From NCBI GenBank assembly GCA_951406725.2, contig OX597823.1:101246001-101310000 (forward strand): 64,000 nt of DNA, in the 5' to 3' direction. A program made the translations under genes and the position numbers. This DNA comes from Octopus vulgaris (lineage: Eukaryota). Positions 35,928-57,518 of the stretch are shown piece by piece. The notes below the pieces were generated by a model. It was not told the DNA's origin, searched no databases, and saw only the letters and a list, made by a program, of their open reading frames with translations. Every line of letters starts with the position of its first letter. Position 1 is the stretch's first letter.

Positions 35928-36539
35928 ATATAATATAATATAATATAATATAATATGATATAATATAATATAAATAATATATATATATACACACATATAT
36001 ACATAAGTATTTATATAGGTATGCATGTATAGGTAAGGACGTCACAAAACATAAACATGAAATACGAAAATAACGTTGGGTACGAAAAGAACGAAAGAAA
36101 CAAATGGAAAACAAGACAAGTAAGAAACGACCCTTCATCAGTTGTCGGCTGTCCTTCTACTCCTTATTTCGAGCAATGAACGACAAGATAAGTTTTTGAA
36201 GGCAGTTGCTCTCGCGAACCAAAATAAAATTTGGGATTTGTGGAGGGTCAAAGTTGGTAGAAAAAATAGGACATACAGGATCTACTTTCGATCTATTTTG
36301 TCCCGGTTCATCATTTATTTAGCATTAGGTTAGAGTTTGAAATGTTTGTCAAAAGCCGAGCATTTGATCACAAAGTTTAGTATTTCACCAGAATCGATAA
36401 AATAATGCCAATAATTGCTTACCAATTCCATTGAGTCATTGAATCTACTGCATATATGTATGTTTGTGCGTGTTTGTGTGTGCATGTGTGTGCGTGTGTG
36501 TGCGTGTGCGTATGTGCATATGTGTGTATATATACATAG

Positions 36540-38435
36540 GTATGCCAAAGAAACAGCTACGGCGCACTGTAGGATAGGTTCACTCCTTGAAAAGGATGGC
36601 ACACTCACAGAAAATCCAATGAGGGTAAGTGAAATACTAAATAAGCAATTCAAGAGTATTTTCACTCCACCCCTAGGGCATTTTCAAGTCAGCAATCCAA
36701 CTGACTTCTTTACCACTGCAGATATAAAATCAGAGGCAGCGATGATTGATTACATCAATATAAAGGAAGACGATGTAATAAAGGTTATTGATGAAATGAA
36801 AACAAACTCAGCTACTGGCCCCGATGGATTCCCAGCAATCCTTCTAAAAGTATGTAAGAGAGTCCTAGCAGGACCACTGCAGTTCCTCTTTCAGAGCTTC
36901 CTTGCAACTGGTAAACTCCCAAGAAAACTGAAGGAAGGTAAAATATGCCCTATTCATAAAGGAGGTAGAAGAGCAGAGGCCAAGAACTACAGACCTATCT
37001 CTCTGACCTCACACATCAGCAAGGTCATGGAACGAATAGTCAGAAGGAAACTAATCACCTTCCTTGAAGAAAATGACTTGCTGCCTGACACCCAACATGG
37101 TTTCCGACCAGGAAGAAGCTGTTTAACTCAGCTCCTACAACACTATGACTGGGTGCTGAAACGACTGCTCAACCACTCAAATGTGGATGTCATATATCTC
37201 GACTTTGCAAAGGCCTTTGATAAAGTCGACCATGGAATGATATGTCACAAACTGCGTGATCTTGGCATAGTTGGAAAATTGGGAGAATGGCTTCATGACT
37301 TTCTGAAGGATAGAAGTCAGGTGGTAGTAGCCATTAACACGCAAATAGTGAGCGGTGTTCCGCAAGGCACTGTTTTGGGACCACTACTGTTCAAAATGGC
37401 TCTCTCAGACATACCCTCAGCCACGCAGAGAGCCATGATCACAAGTTATGCAGATGATACAAAAGTTTCACAGGCAGAACCCTGAAGACATTAAGAACCT
37501 TCAATGTGAGCTGGACAAAATATACAAGTGGGCTGAAAAGAATAGCATGCAGTTCAATGCTGAAAAGTTTCAAGCTTTATGCTATCAGCATGCAAAACTA
37601 AATGCAATACCCAATAAATACACTGGACCTGGAGGGATTGCAATCCCAGAGGCACAATCAGTGCGAGACCTGGGTATTTACATGAGTGATAATGCAACCT
37701 TTCATGTGCATGTTGCTAAATTGGCAATGAAATGTAGGCAGCTGACCGGATGGATTCTTAGAACCTTTAGAACAAGAGACCAGGAAACCATGATGGTCCT
37801 CTGGAAGACACTTGTCCTAAGCCACTTTGACTATTGCTCTCAGCTATGGTCACCATCCAGTGTCAAGTTAATCACAGAACTTGAGGCGATCCAACGAAGC
37901 TACACGAAGAAGATAGCCTCTGTGCAGCATATAAGCTATTGGGAAAGACTCAAGAGACTGAAACTCTATTCCTTAGAGCGTAGGCGAGAAAGATATGCCA
38001 TAATATATATCTGGAAGATCCTAGAAGGACTTGTCCCAAACTTTGACATCGAGAGTTACACAAATGCCAGATCTGGGCCCCACTGCACAGTGCCAAGGAC
38101 TCCAAATTTGCCATCAAGATGTAGGACAAGATACTGTGATAGCCTGGGCTTCCGAGGGCCACAGCTCTTCATTATCCTCCCGAAGAACCTAAGAGACCTG
38201 CATGGGGTGGATGCAGATGTCTTTAAAATAAAACTGGATCTCTTGTTGCCAGGTGTCTCAGATGAACCAACTTCACGGCAGGAGGTGCAGATGAGGGCAG
38301 CTGCATCGAACTCTCTCATGTACCAAATGGCAATTGCTAAAAAGCATTCGTGAAGTAAAATCATGTAGCAACACCAAATGGCGGTGCCCCAGCATGGCCA
38401 CAGCTTGTGAGCTGAAACTAGATAAAAATAAAAAA
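36540..38435 (+). mobile_element. 5'-truncated CR1/L2-group LINE with most of the RT domain and an intact 3' end
   Basis: ATGPDG, NYRPISLTS..SKVMERIV, QHGFRPGRSC, YLDFAKAFDKVDH, SGVPQGTVLGP and YADDT motifs. Frameshift near 37480; stop at 38353. Confidence 0.92.
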
Positions 38436-46454: not shown

Positions 46455-46974
46455 ACAGGGGTGAGCCATTCAGACTGGTCATCCATTTTGGCGAGAAGAT
46501 CCCTTATCGTCTTTTATGCTACACCACTGGTTTTCAGTTCAAGAAGGACTATTCATTATAATACATCAGTTCCACACATTTACCCTGGATTCCATTTCGG
46601 ACAACTGCACAAACATTTGCCATTTCACACATGTATGTAAACAAATTCCTTTCTTTAAAATATTTCAATTCATTTTCTTTTTTCAATTTACGTTTCTATA
46701 CACTTTACGCAAATATTTGATTAAACAACTAAAACACTTCACATTTCGAACATGTACGTAAACTACTTCCTTTATTGCAAATCTAACTTTCTTTTCTGGC
46801 TTTTAACTCAAATTTCTATACATTTTACACACTCTGTCGCTATACTTGCATAAAAAATTTCTTTCAGCTGCTAATATTTATTTCTTTTCCTTCCACGCTT
46901 TACATTTTTCCACATTTCATTCAAATTACAATTTCTATCTTTAAGTAACTTTCACCCTTTCTTTTTCACATAAA

Positions 46975-49900
46975 ATGCCACCGAAAAAGAGAAGTCACAT
47001 CGGCCGCCATACTGCAGCAGCAGCTGCGAAAAAGGCGAAGCGCAGCGCCATAAACGCTTCTGCTGTTGCTGCACAAAGGGCTTCAGAGGACCCACAACAA
47101 AGGGCCACTCGACTGGCTACAAACGCTGCGGTTGCTTCATACGATGCTGCTTCCACGGCTTCAGACGGTCCGGAAACAAGGTCGAAGCGCAGCGCCATAA
47201 AGGCTTCTGCTGTTGCTGCACAAAGGGCTTCAGAGGACCCACAACAAAGGGCCACTCGACTGGCTACAAACGCTGCGGTTGCTTCATACGATGCTGCTTC
47301 CACGGCTTCAGACGGTCCGGAAACAAGGTCGAAGCGCAACGCCATAAACGCTTCTGCTGTTGCTGCACAAAGGGCTTCAGAGGACCCACAACAAAGGGCC
47401 ACTCGACTGGCTACAAACGCTGCGGTTGCTTCATACGATGCTGCTTCCACGGCTTCAGACGGTCCGGAAACAAGGTCGAAGCGCAGCGCCATAAAGGCTT
47501 CTGCTGTTGCTGCACAAAGGGCTTCAGAGGACCCACAACAAAGGGCCACTCGACTGGCTACAAACGCTGCGGTTGCTTCATACGATGCTGCTTCCACGGC
47601 TTCAGACGGTCCGGAAACAAGGTCGAAGCGCAGCGCCATAAAGGCTTCTGCTGTTGCTGCACAAAGGGCTTCAGAGGACCCACAACAAAGGGCCACTCGA
47701 CTGGCTACAAACGCTGCGGCTACTGCTGCTTCAACATTTTCGACACATTCCCACGACTCAGACCAGCAACGTTCTACATTCCAGCGGAACAGTCGACGCC
47801 GCGGTCTGACGAGTCCAAACAGACCTTACTGGCATCTACGTGCTTTCAAGTATGAGCCCAACTTCAATTACTCGATGCACGCTGACATAAATATTGGGGA
47901 AATGTTCTTCAATTGACAATTCTGCAATGCTAAAAAGTGGGCTGGGGAACCACCTGCGATGTGCTGCTTAAACGGTAAGGTCAGCTTGCCCCCTCTTCGG
48001 GAGCTGCCAGACCCTTTGAAGGAATTACTTACTGGTTCCACCTCAAGGTCATCAAAATTCCTTCAACTCATCAGGAAATACAATTGTGCATTTCAGATGA
48101 CTTCTTTCGGGGCTAACGTTGTCAGAGAAACTGATTGGATGCCTACTTTCAAGGTCCAGGGCCAGGTGTACCACCTTATTGGGTCACTCCAGCCACTACA
48201 ACATTGCAAACCTTCGTTCCTTCAAATTTATTTTATTACAAATTATAATAGGCAACTTGGTTTGCGTTTCGACGTAATTCCACAACATGCAAACACTAAC
48301 GCTGACAATTTCGACAGGGACGTGCTGCTCACTCTGCAAAACATGCTTCATGACCACAACAGCTATATTCGCAGTTTCAAATACGCCTTGGAAACAGCCC
48401 CTTCACCAACATTCACCATTGTCATCGATGCTGACAAAAGGCCTTCTGGGGAGCACGCGCGGTGATATAACGCTCCTTCGTGCAATGAAGTGGCCATAGT
48501 TCTCCATGGTGAACAGCACAAGCAGCGGGACATATTTCTTCAAAGCCGCGACAGTGGTCTTCAGCGTATTAATGAGTCGCATCGGTCATATGACGCCCTG
48601 CAGTATCCCCTTCTTTTTACGTATGGAGAAGACGGGTACCATTTCGGCATTCCTCACCACAAACCAAACGAGCCCTCGGCTGCGACATCTAAAACTGTTT
48701 CATGTATGGCTTTTTACTCATACCGCTTCATGACAAGGCATAATGATTTCAACCCCCTGCACAGATCACGGCAACTGTTTCACCAGTTTGCAGTTGAGAT
48801 GGCTGCAAAGATGGAGTCCGAGAGACTGGGCTTCATCAAATTGAATCAGAAGCAGCTGCGCTCAGACTCCTACATCCATTTGCGTGATGGCATCAGGAAT
48901 GACACTGACGCCCGCAATATCGGCAAAATGTGCATTCTCCCCTCAACCTATACAGGGGGCCCACGGTACATGCACGAGCGAACACAAGACGCTATGACTT
49001 ACGTTCGGCATTATGGGCGACCCGATTTATTCATTACCTTTACATGTAACCCAAAGTGGGTTGAGGTAACGCGAGAACTTCTCCCAAGGCAGCAGTACTG
49101 TCATTGCCATGATATTATTGCAAGGGTTTTCAGGCAGAAACTGGCTAAGCTCATTCTTTTAATAAAAAAAGGCCAGGTTTTTGGGCCTGTTAACTGCCAC
49201 ATGTATACTGTTGAGTGGCAGAAAAGAGGGTTGCCACATGCGCACATTTTGCTTTGGTTGGTCAACAAAATAGACCCAACAGTTCTTGATGATCTCATTG
49301 CAGCAGAAATTCCGGACCCAACTGTTGACCGGCACCTGTACGACATTGTGAAAGCACACATGGTACACGGTCCGTGCGGTCCTGGTTTTCAAAAGTTCTC
49401 CTCATGCCACAAAGACCACGTGTGCACTAAACGGTACCCAAAGAGGTTCGTGGACGAGACCCTGACCGGCCGCGACGGATACCCACTGTACAGAAGAAGG
49501 CACCCTGACAATGGTGGATTCACTATAACGTTACGGGGTCATCAAGTGGATAATAGGTGGGTACTGTCCATTTCTGATGAAAACTTTTAACGCTCACATA
49601 AATGTGGAGTTCTGTCATTCAGTCAAGTCTATAAAGTATATATGCAAATATGTTAACAAGGGTTCTGACGCTGCCATGTTTGGCCTTCAAAAGGACAATA
49701 GCATGGACGAGGTGTCACAGTACATGGCAGGTCGGTACATAAGCAGTGGTGAAGCTTTTTGGCGGATATTCGGGTTTCCACTTCACCAAAGGCACCCCGC
49801 CATCATACAACTAGCGGTTCATTTGGAAAATGGCCAACGAATTTACTTTACTGAACAGACTGCAGCTGATTTGGCGGCAAATCCAAAACAAACAACTTTG

Positions 49901-51982
49901 ACCGGTTTCTTTAGGCTTTGCCAACTTGACACATTTGCTAAAACACTTTTATACCCTCAGGTCCCGTCCTACTACGTGTAGTCAAACAACAATTGGGTGC
50001 GTAGGAAGTCGGGTCAGGATGTTGAAGGACATCCTGGTGTCAAGTTTAACAGTTGTCTAGGAAGAGTCTACACTGTACCTCCAAACCAACATGACTGTTT
50101 TCACCTGCGCCTTCTCCTCCATGAGGTTTTAGGCCTACAAAGTTTTCAAGACATCAGAACTGTTGATGGTGTATTATGTGATACTTTCCGTGAAGCCTGT
50201 TTTCGGCGTCGTCTTTTGGAGGATGATTCACAATGGGGCGCCACTATGGCAGAAGGTGTTTCATTAAAATCTCCTAAAAAAATCAGATCGCTTTTCGCTA
50301 TTCTATTACTATGGTGTGACTTGGCTAATCCCGCCTCTTTATGGCTTACCTACAAAGATGATATGTCTGAAGATTTCCTGCATCACGCTCAATCGCTACA
50401 TCCATCAATGGAGGTCGGGTACACTGACCTCATTTACAACAGGGCGCTGCTTGAAATCGAAGATACTGTACTCGATATGGGCGGTAGTGCCTTGCCGGTC
50501 TATGGCCTACCTTCAACAAACCGGGAAGGCACAAACACTCTGTCTTCACATTTGCTGCGTGAGACATGTTTTAATGTTGACGAGCTTGCCGAGTACATAG
50601 CCGACAATGAGCCAAAGCTCTTTCCAGAACAGAAGTTCGCTTACAACTCCGTTGTTAATTCAGTCCGGGCCAAAGCTGGGGACATTTTTTTCCTGGACGC
50701 TCCTGGGGGCACTGGGAAAACTTTTGTCAACAAATTAATATTGGCTGAGATAAGGCGAACACAAGGCATTGCCCTAGCTGTGGCATCATCTGGAATTGCG
50801 GCTACTTTGTTGCCAGGCGGCAGGACAGCTCACTCTACTTTCAAACTCCCACTTGACTTAGCGAAGACTGAGACACCAACTTGCAACATCAGTAACAGCT
50901 CCGATCAGGCAGAAGTCTTCAGACGATGCAAGCTTATCGTTTGGGATGAATGCACGATGGCCCACAGAGGTGCTCTTGAGGCACTAGATAGATCTCTCAG
51001 AGACATCAAACACTCTTCAGCTCCCATGGGAGGCATAACACTTCTTCTTTCAGGGGACTTCCGACAAACACTTCCCGTTATTCCCAAAGGGACTAGAGCT
51101 GATGCTGTAAGTGCGTGTCTTAAGTCATCCACATTGTGGCCACTGGTGAAGACTCTCAAACTTCACACCAATATGCGTGCTCATATGCGACGTGATATCA
51201 CATCAGCAGCATTTTCTCACACCCTCCTTGCACTTGGCGAAGGCAAAATACCAGGGGATGAAAATGGTAATATTGCCATCGATTCCATTTGTACCATTGT
51301 TAACACGCCTTCTGATCTCAGAGATGCAGTCTTCCCAGATCTACAAGCTAATTATCAGAATATGGATTGGATTGGCCAAAGGGCTATTCTGGCCCCGAGG
51401 AATAAAACTGTTCACCATATTAATGATGAAATGCTAAAACTCATTCCTGGGGATGTCTATGTATATAAGTCTATTGATACAACTCCTGACCCAGACGACG
51501 TCATCAATTATCCAATAGAGGTACTCAATTCCTTTGAGCCCCCCGGACTACCACCACACATTCTCAAACTTAAAGTTGGTGCCCCTATAATGCTCATTAG
51601 AAATTTGGTTCTCCCAAAACAATGTAATGGCACACGTTTGATCGTTAAGTCCTTATCTCCCAATCTGATTGAGGCCACCATTATCACAGGGTGCGGTCGA
51701 GGCAACGTTGTGCTCATACCTAGGATGCATCTTTTCCCATCAGGAGCAGACCTACCTTTCATATTTCGGAGGTCCCAGTTCCCAGTAAGGCCATGTTTCG
51801 CAATGTCAATTAACAAAGCGCAGGGTCAAACACTGTCTGTGGCAGGAATACATTTGGGAGAGCCATGTTTCTCTCATGGTCAGCTTTATGTTGGCTGCTC
51901 ACGTGTCGGCAGCAACAGTGATGCTTTCGCATTCCTTCCACAACGAAAAACAAAAAACATTGTGTACAAGGAGGTTTTATAG
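46975..51982 (+). pseudogene. Helitron Rep/Hel transposase (HUH-Y2 Rep plus PIF1-family SF1B helicase), disrupted
   Basis: PDLFITFTCNPKW, VEWQKRGLPHAHILL, KYICKYVNKG, DAPGGTGKT, IVWDEC, GDFRQTLPV, FAMSINKAQGQTL and HGQLYVGCSRV motifs. In-frame stops at 47914, 48463 and 49979; one frameshift near 49560. Confidence 0.93.
47036..47720 (+). repeat. 147-bp (49-aa) near-identical tandem repeat, ~4.6 copies, at the Rep/Hel N-terminus
   Basis: GAAGCGCAGCGCC recurs at 47037, 47184 and onward with period 147. Confidence 0.95.
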
Positions 51983-54545: not shown

Positions 54546-54586
<41 letters not shown>

Positions 54587-54594
<8 letters not shown>

Positions 54595-55643
54595 ATGTAG
54601 GATAAAACTTTTTCGAAAAAAAAATTTTTTTTTCTCAATGGCCAGCATATTAAAAAATACTTTTAAAGGTTAAATTTATAAACAACTTATAAATAAAGGC
54701 AAACGAAAACATTTCTAATGCCAAATATGCCGAAATTAGACACATTGTCCATAACCATTATAAATTTTTCACAATACGCACGCTACTCAAAAAACGTCGA
54801 CAGAAATTTCTAAAAAATTCCATTATTACCATATCGGACCGATTTCAGGGTTAGTTCGTAAGAACCCTCCCTTCGTCAGTGATAAATGTGGCAAAGAAAT
54901 AAATGAGATACTTACTCATGCCCATGGAAGAAGCAAACACCAAGTCATGAGCACAATTAAGTACCCCAAATACATCCAAAATAGAAATATTCTAGCCCAT
55001 TTGAGACACGTGCGATTTGAACTGAGGCTCTCACAGAGTGAGAGAGTACGGAAGTGAAATTTATATTTAATGTAGGATAAAAATTTTTCAAAAAAAAAAA
55101 AAAAAATTCGCCATATTTGGCATTAGAAATTTTTTCGTTTGCCCTTATTTATAAATTGTTTATAAATTTAACCTTTAAATGTATCTTTTAATATGCTGGC
55201 CATTGATAAAATTTCTTCTTTTTTTTTCCAGAAAATTTTATCCTACATTAAATATAAATTTAACAGTGTTCACTTCCGGACTCTCTCACTCTGTGAGTGC
55301 CTCAGTTCAAATCGCACGTGTCTCAAATGGGCTAGAGAATTTCTATTTTGGATGTATTTGGGGTACTTAATTGTGCTCATGACTTAATGTTTGCTTCTTC
55401 CATGGGCATGAGTAAGTATCTCATTTATTTCTTTGCCACATTTATCACTGACGAAGGGAGGGTTCTTACGAACTAACCCTGAAATCGGTCCGATATGGTA
55501 ATAGTGGAATTTTTTAGAAATTTCTGTCGACGTTTTTTGAGTAGCGTGCGTATTGTGAAAAAATTATAATGGTTATGGACAATGTATCTAATTTCGGCAT
55601 ATTTGGCATTAGAAATGTTTTCGTTTGCCCTTATTTATAAGTT

Positions 55644-55651
<8 letters not shown>
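54587..55651. mobile_element. Head-to-head pair of >1-monomer copies of a ~480-bp non-coding HHR-bearing unit (retrozyme-like or tandem PLE terminal repeat)
   Basis: Left arm period 475 (TTTAATGTAGGATAAAA at 54591 and 55066). Right arm period 486 (CATATTTGGCATTAGAAAT at 55112 and 55598). The arms are reverse complements, with (TA)n flanks. Confidence 0.8.
55433..55501 (+). ncRNA. Type I hammerhead ribozyme motif with canonical core; mirror core at 54832-54884 on the minus strand
   Basis: TTGCCA-CATT-TATC A CTGACGA AGGG-AG-GGTTC-TTAC-GAACT-AA-CCCT GAA AT-CG-GT C C GATA TGGTAA. Bulged stem I, long stem II and a GUC triplet; A.C mismatch at the first pair of stem I. Confidence 0.75.
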
Positions 55652-55713
<62 letters not shown>

Positions 55714-57223: not shown

Positions 57224-57293
<70 letters not shown>

Positions 57294-57484
57294 CTAATAT
57301 AGGATGAAAATTTTTTCAGGAAAAAATTTCATCAAAAGTGGCAGCATATCAAAATACTTTTAAAGGTTAAAATTATAAACAACTTATAAACAAGGGCAAA
57401 AAAAAAATTTATTTCCATGCCAATATGCCGATAACCGACTTTAAATCGTCAATTTCCACATTTCTCTTTTGCCCTTGTTTATAA

Positions 57485-57518
<34 letters not shown>

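Follow-up and report, generated by a model that had tools for sequence, protein, structure and literature searches.

The insertion at positions 54546-55684 of the window, as we call the whole 64,000-nt stretch of Octopus vulgaris contig OX597823.1 that was analysed, is a copy of a dispersed, ORF-less 486-nt repeat that carries a covarying hammerhead fold; it was probably inserted in trans by a Penelope-like element (PLE), and its template was probably a circular monomer RNA. We are highly confident that PLEs mobilise the unit; given such mobilisation, a circular template is likely. Like PLEs of the same genome, copies of the unit stop within TA microsatellites at one or other of two fixed points, which makes it a likely PLE hitch-hiker. 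We place the family among the animal non-LTR retrozymes, as a non-autonomous member mobilised by PLEs and thus in effect a non-autonomous PLE; it is not categorically new.

The locus consists of two arms of the unit joined head to head (Table 1). The arms share an inverted match of 388 nt at 97% identity, each is longer than one unit, and (TA)n tracts lie on both flanks. The longest stop-to-stop frame in the insertion is 97 aa and has no Pfam match, and the GC content of the unit is 0.32-0.33, i.e. under 45%. Inverted arms longer than one unit, a (TA)n setting and the absence of a meaningful ORF had all been described in the original prediction, which as an observation is real in large part and stands partly confirmed. 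The 3' end of the left arm is end2, the distal of the two fixed points; it includes the tail and runs into (TA)n, the outermost few bases being common to arm and microsatellite. The 3' end of the right arm is end1, the proximal fixed point, which is tail-less and also runs into (TA)n. A conserved hairpin lies inside the tail just before end2, and by analogy with a PLE studied in vitro (PMC11167929) the tail may represent the interval between two reverse transcriptase (RT) start sites. A second, short insertion of a diverged subfamily further along the window also sits in a microsatellite. Elsewhere in the window, positions 46945-51982 hold Helitron remnants with Helitron_like_N and PIF1 helicase frames, which follow a 147-bp tandem array that matches STPR, and LINE-type fragments (RVT_1; zf-RVT) lie at 36415-38353 and 289-1398.

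Table 1 Features of the head-to-head insertion and of a second insertion, in window coordinates.
Feature	Position	Strand	Details
Left (TA)n target microsatellite	54546-54591	none	
Left arm	54581-55108	minus	5'-truncated; 528 nt; period 475
Tail between the two fixed 3' points	54588-54676	minus	~90 nt; at the left arm end only
Type I hammerhead, left arm	54820-54892	minus	predicted cut between 54832 and 54831
9-nt deletion in left arm	55058-55059	minus	directly 3' of the internal end2 copy
Head-to-head inversion junction	55104-55108		arms overlap by ~4 nt
Right arm	55104-55656	plus	553 nt; period 486
B-box-like 9-mer	55305-55313	plus	GTTCAAATC
Type I hammerhead, right arm	55435-55507	plus	predicted cut between 55495 and 55496
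CUGACGA core, right arm	55448-55454	plus	
Stem II, right arm	55455-55480	plus	
GAAA, right arm	55481-55484	plus	
GUC in loop of stem III, right arm	55488-55490	plus	
AUA triplet, right arm	55493-55495	plus	
Right (TA)n target microsatellite	55647-55684	none	
Second short insertion, subfamily C	57285-57485	end2 arm minus, end1 arm plus	diverged, ~77% identical

A scan of the window for three-helix hammerheads gave one match per strand, namely the two arms, and 0 matches in 30 block-shuffled windows. Searches against Rfam, over 10 kb with a limit of E ≤ 1 and over 141 nt with E ≤ 10, returned no hammerhead, and this hammerhead family thus escapes Rfam detection. We aligned 16 hand-chosen sequences, 15 of them distinct and from three subfamilies, with MAFFT. 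The supported fold has a stem III of AUCG/CGAU, an unbroken inner stem I of 6 bp, a 2x2 internal loop and an outer helix, instead of the bulged stem I originally described. In this fold, in which the cut follows AUA, the core is invariant and the three helices covary: 94.4% of the alignment cells in the 15 distinct rows are paired, and both sides have changed in 13 of 23 pairs across the three subfamilies, well above slid controls, although these counts are not independent because the 15 rows represent about three lineages. A cut after GUC leaves stem I just 74% paired and needs a 2-nt loop III, and the GUC triplet is replaced in subfamilies B and C. The compensatory pairs under the AUA fold and the lack of conservation of GUC therefore identify AUA as the predicted cut triplet. 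Thus the original assignment of a hammerhead core to each arm holds, while the cut that it placed after the GUC moves, the GUC being loop III. The window sequence scores -18.3 kcal/mol in the AUA reading compared to -10.1 kcal/mol in the GUC reading; its unconstrained optimum, at -21.0 kcal/mol, is a partly misfolded form. Self-cleavage of the unit is accordingly predicted by the folding model to occur after AUA. Two consecutive hammerheads on the same strand are absent from this locus. With one hammerhead per arm, on opposite strands and head to head, it could not itself release a monomer; the window locus is an offspring copy. Two other hammerhead-core-like starts in the window, at 36141 (minus) and 39919 (plus), failed the three-helix scan and are possibly decayed or minimal PLE hammerheads.

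The repeat is widespread in the genome (2.8 Gb in 227 contigs searched). Exact matches to the subfamily A hammerhead number 550 for a 21-mer and 65 for a 50-mer, and a first-look search returned 2827 candidates, a figure that is not a copy number. Two further subfamilies were found, B at ~75% and C at ~67-80% identity. We analysed 202 loci in five sets: 29 best matches, 57 exact-hammerhead loci, 74 loci anchored 3' of the hammerhead, 17 multimer loci and 25 subfamily B loci. Together the sets include 64 of the 65 exact-50-mer hammerhead loci; the 3'-anchored set derives from 89 matches, the rest of which are second matches in one locus or fall in other sets. After removal of repeated fetches these loci contain 311 distinct arms of at least 40 nt, subfamily C loci being outside the counts. 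The multimer loci with consecutive hammerheads comprise 16 dimers and one tetramer, and no array of more than four units was found among exact-motif pairs, the copies being dispersed. The largest array, L243:4504-7057 on the small contig C55, carries hammerheads on both strands, four in one orientation and two in the opposite one. Its tetramer units alternate in length (473/503/474 nt), with a ~28-nt deletion in units 1 and 3 only, and it is a candidate source locus or product of a dimer template. Two pairs of near-duplicate loci, L037/L038 and L049/L050, lie 12-15 kb apart. In contigs of sequencing run X2, a 52-nt skip removes the start of the hammerhead core (window 55398-55451, 55529-55569), with a matching loose end in run X5, and other loose contig ends suggest a fourth subfamily. 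Contigs of three runs, presumed to be of RNA but possibly of DNA, cover 29 of 29 bins; neither strand, ends nor circularity is readable from them, and they carry no weight in the argument. Titles and the opening lines of abstracts gave no published description of the repeat family, a search that may miss the taxon; the supplements of PMC7229834 and PMC8557442 may list relatives.

The ends of the arms carry the clearest signature. With unit positions (u) numbered from window 55104 at a period of 486, 256 of the 311 arms have one of two fixed 3' ends ~90 nt apart: 130 stop at end1 (u55-70) and 126 at end2 (u140-165), the remaining 55 ending elsewhere. The class limits were fixed after a first view of the ends and prior to the count of pairs. 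Of these 256 classed ends, 229 run into at least three TA units. Next to each end point lies a hairpin that subfamilies A, B and C all retain. At L034, L037, L038, L031 and L052 there is a minor third 3' end, near u27, which runs into TA-rich sequence. Only the 5' ends scatter across the whole unit, and random permutation of the ends, as expected of the free circular permutation originally proposed, is ruled out by the two fixed 3' points. Fixed 3' ends are compatible with a circle, since the RT of a PLE initiates at set internal positions, two of which define the tail (PMC11167929).

Head-to-head insertions follow a strict rule. Both ends could be classed in 58 of the 92 distinct head-to-head junctions (two of the 58 come from one locus, L181), and end1 is paired with end2 in 58 of 58. 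Inspected by eye, the 34 pairs with one unclassed end include 16 that look mixed, one (L145) that looks like end2 with end2, and 17 that could not be assigned. Single-arm loci show both kinds of end, with 43 at end2, 39 at end1 and 12 at other points. We also considered fold-back copying of the first cDNA and rejected it: in 34 of 58 pairs it is the end1 arm that has the more 5' start, and so the arms are not nested.

Variants shared between copies bear on the template. Opposite arms of an insertion share rare letters, i.e. those found in under 5% of other loci with homopolymer and tail columns excluded, at 56 of 8898 sites (0.63%) versus 159 of 525,483 (0.03%) for random pairs, and successive rounds of one arm do so at 30 of 6852 sites (0.44%). 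Divergence is 5.4% between rounds, 5.5% between opposite arms and 8.4% between different loci, and at L198 an identical private deletion is present in both rounds. The sharing between opposite arms argues for one template lineage per insertion, and that between rounds, together with the L198 deletion, for a monomer bottleneck; early local gene conversion could be an alternative source of the variants common to rounds. Sites confined to later rounds count against a plain monomer circle: three-way comparisons gave 8 rare patterns common to the three copies, 3 limited to the later rounds and 1 of another kind, and window position 55131 has the family letter, whereas both terminal rounds have G.

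Among the 256 classed arms, 177 traverse the cut site, 53 are longer than one unit and 18 traverse the cut a second time, counts that are inflated because some samples were anchored on the hammerhead; the 3'-anchored set alone gives 57 and 9 of 102. The length of the cut region is kept in 199 of 201 passes, and 62 of the 69 arms that reach u400 pass u385. Genome-wide searches found 5 breaks at the cut versus 8 and 2 in two control windows, which on inspection reduced to 4 true junctions versus 4 and 2; the search patterns miss most junctions that directly abut (TA)n, and one such case was found (L166). A linear, hammerhead-cut monomer was rejected as the main template, as 5' ends are not in excess at the cut. 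Intact passage of the cut without an excess of breaks implies that the template was either religated or uncut. Taken at the level of sequence, the evidence favours a template that passes through a one-unit (monomer) bottleneck. Folded as a circle, the monomer gives z scores of -6.4 and -4.6 (40 shuffles each). The rolling copying of a circular RNA that was originally suggested fits the monomer bottleneck and the intact cut passages; the random permutation of ends expected with it fails.

A four-step route would produce such insertions. Rare tandem loci with two hammerheads would be transcribed, and the monomer would be cut out after AUA and ligated into a circle. A PLE protein would nick both strands of a (TA)n target, as the end pattern and the PLE studied in vitro suggest (PMC11167929), and each 3' end would prime cDNA at one of the two internal RNA sites ~90 nt apart, one per strand. 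Each cDNA would then be extended to a varying length, in most cases past the cut site and in some beyond a full round, which is the pattern observed in the arms. Finally, the two cDNA ends would be joined by microhomology to give the inversion, and extension on a single strand would leave a single arm. A PLE protein cuts and extends both strands and is predicted to dimerise (PMC11167929). We tentatively propose, as a possible rather than a probable refinement, that a single RT-endonuclease dimer of a PLE takes up one circular hammerhead RNA and primes the two nicked strands, always one at each of the fixed sites, rolling past the ligated ribozyme junction.

The rival that survives best retains the same element and the same PLE route but has a linear, uncleaved tandem transcript as template, with the RT jumping from the 5' end of the RNA to end2 and the hammerhead only trimming transcripts or acting late; we regard it as rather unlikely. 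Five deletions begin at u152-161, clustered next to end2, where they fit such a jump from a linear 5' end, and 4 of 72 passes across the end2 junction are deleted; against the rival, 68 of 72 are intact. The alternation of unit types in the L243 tetramer counts against a plain monomer circle, because one such circle cannot give it. In vitro data favour unprocessed RNA: the one PLE so studied, from anole, could dispense with hammerhead cleavage and mainly used RNA that had not been processed (PMC11167929). Of the Xenopus retrozyme dimers assayed in vitro, 1 of 9 was cleaved (10.64898/2026.07.22.740005). The 5' ends are slightly commoner at u163-189 in one sample (6 of 17 at risk), whereas the other samples show no pile-up there. 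An active mid-unit hammerhead would destroy a linear template, yet the hammerhead has been kept with compensatory changes. With rounds as divergent as they are today, there is also little sign of mixed-dimer templates: 4 sites are confined to later rounds compared to 5 and 6 for the control patterns, and 33 are common to all three copies.

Insertion in trans places the enzyme outside the unit, and PLEs of the appropriate type are present in the same genome. We scored 150 of 6136 GIY-YIG candidates and examined 36 distinct places, so PLE families may be missed. Intact 781-aa RT+GIY-YIG ORFs occur at 12 loci. Neptune-type PLEs of this genome end in (TA)n at two points ~35 nt apart, and a second PLE family has the same two-ended (TA)n anatomy with a tail of ~35 nt. 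The inverted PLE loci L112, L286, L288 and L294 have one end of each kind in 4 of 4 cases, in three of which the query itself favoured the tailed arm. The autonomous families examined have minimal hammerheads with a palindromic stem III. In alignments with the unit, the 3' ends of the PLE loci examined (the GIY-YIG loci and one further family) gave chance-level matches at most, a point against the proposed route. A minimal hammerhead-like motif is found in the young 781-aa Neptune-type family (L094-L121, e.g. L109:5395-5440); we take its core to carry U at position 3 and A at position 8 where C and G are usual, a change that keeps the pair, and the core of the family at L120 presumably has C at position 4.

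One could instead see the unit as the terminal repeat (pLTR) of an autonomous PLE outside those found, the copies being its 5'-truncated stumps. Tail, inversion and (TA)n targeting are indeed features of PLE ends (PMC8557442, PMC3846280), the limited share of GIY-YIG candidates examined leaves room for such a family, and three loci (L164, L014 and L028) carry PLE ORF fragments just past the 3' end of the unit. All the same, we consider this improbable. Of the 256 arms, 53 exceed one unit, and these extend into a further unit copy, never into an ORF. Fragments of a PLE ORF lie nearby in 14 of 202 loci, and in the flanks of 1.5-3 kb none of the 202 has one upstream of the hammerhead, in the pLTR position; the three adjacent cases are separated from the unit by TA repeats. 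The hammerhead also differs, with a closed stem III and an extended stem I in the unit versus the minimal, palindromic form of the autonomous families. That the unit is not an ordinary terminal repeat on a PLE ORF, as originally held, is borne out, and PLE-type mobilisation of a hammerhead-bearing, non-coding unit is supported by the PLE insertion signature. The interpretation offered in the original prediction is thus partly supported overall. At L164:1528-1640, a few TA repeats separate the end of a unit arm from a 5'-truncated PLE ORF that follows it in the same direction; two insertions into a single microsatellite, or else a template switch, would account for this arrangement.

Spread by a LINE RT, as a Pol III SINE or by satellite amplification at the DNA level is very improbable. 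In the SINE-like hammerhead repeats of Schistosoma, the promoter-like motif is a Pol III promoter. The octopus unit has the B-box-like 9-mer that had been pointed out originally, and it is kept in subfamilies A and B; a functional role is not supported, as the 9-mer is absent in 4 of 4 subfamily C copies that cover the site and the sense unit holds seven runs of at least four T. A tRNA search of the unit found none. The unit therefore lacks the hallmarks of a Pol III SINE, i.e. a tRNA head or conserved A/B boxes and no internal terminator. Poly(A) is likewise absent, the two fixed ends fall one per strand, and the dispersal of the copies, in arrays of at most four units among exact-motif pairs, does not resemble satellite amplification. 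Just 3' of end2 (window 55268-55320) lie ACTTCCGG, kept in subfamilies A and B, and CACGTG, kept in those and also in C, which we take to resemble ETS and E-box sites; as sequence motifs they might mark an internal promoter. Lastly, long inverted repeats in microsatellites are difficult to assemble, but an assembly fold-back is the least probable reading of all because the two arms differ by ~10 substitutions, one 9-nt indel and end type, the same anatomy recurs at the 92 junctions of the family, and opposite-strand joints also occur in contigs of another DNA-like run (X19).

The unit shares many features with the metazoan non-LTR retrozymes (PMC7229834; 10.64898/2026.07.22.740005): it is non-coding, of low GC (33%) and highly self-paired, has a canonical type I hammerhead, forms monomers, dimers and a tetramer, and co-occurs with autonomous PLEs. 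It differs from them in its length of 486 nt, which exceeds the 170-400 nt reported for invertebrate retrozymes and lies within the 51-972 nt of a vertebrate survey, and in that the family consists mostly of dispersed, 5'-truncated arms rather than arrays. The window locus, with its single hammerhead in each head-to-head arm, lacks the two consecutive same-strand hammerheads by which the preprint defines an 'active' copy (10.64898/2026.07.22.740005). In common with EN+ PLEs of the Neptune/Nematis type (PMC8557442, PMC3846280, PMC11167929), the family shows 5' truncation, inverted partners that are likewise 5'-truncated, partial tandems, a tail that may be present on one of the two inverted ends, insertion into AT-rich/(TA)n sequence and a pair of internal RT start sites by which the tail would be defined. 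Unlike these PLEs, the unit is ORF-less, its tail is ~90 nt rather than 30-40 nt, its hammerhead has the canonical form, with a closed stem III and an AUA triplet, where theirs is minimal and palindromic, and its sequence does not match the PLE ends examined in this genome. The non-autonomous Chlamys elements, e.g. MRC1, are likewise ORF-less PLE dependants, with pLTRs and head-to-tail multicopy insertions (PMC8557442). They generally resemble their autonomous partner at the 3' end, however, and belong to a clade that lacks canonical hammerheads. The Schistosoma repeats resemble the unit in being short and in having a promoter-like motif upstream of the hammerhead (PMC6765202); here, in contrast, not all subfamilies keep the B-box-like motif, and runs of T interrupt the sequence ahead of the hammerhead.

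That PLEs mobilise animal retrozymes via circular RNA is a standing hypothesis supported by co-occurrence and pLTR similarity, and the 2026 preprint describes the mechanism of mobilisation as still open (10.64898/2026.07.22.740005). Neither insertion-end maps nor a PLE tail on retrozymes appears in the available text of PMC7229834 or of that preprint. A tail on one of two inverted ends has already been noted for PLEs (PMC3846280, PMC8557442), so the qualitative rule is known; what is new here is how strictly the one-end-per-arm rule holds and that a retrozyme follows it. The insertion signature of PLEs is thus found on the copies of the retrozyme itself, which is direct genomic support for PLE mobilisation. 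If the proposed priming of both strands on one circle is true, it would tie retrozyme circles directly to the target-primed reverse transcription of PLEs, would explain the one-sided tail, and would provide a minimal substrate of 486 nt together with intact candidate enzymes from the same genome. As the RNA is short and defined, both start sites are mapped, the cut site has been corrected and these candidate enzymes are intact, the question of a circular or a linear template becomes directly testable.
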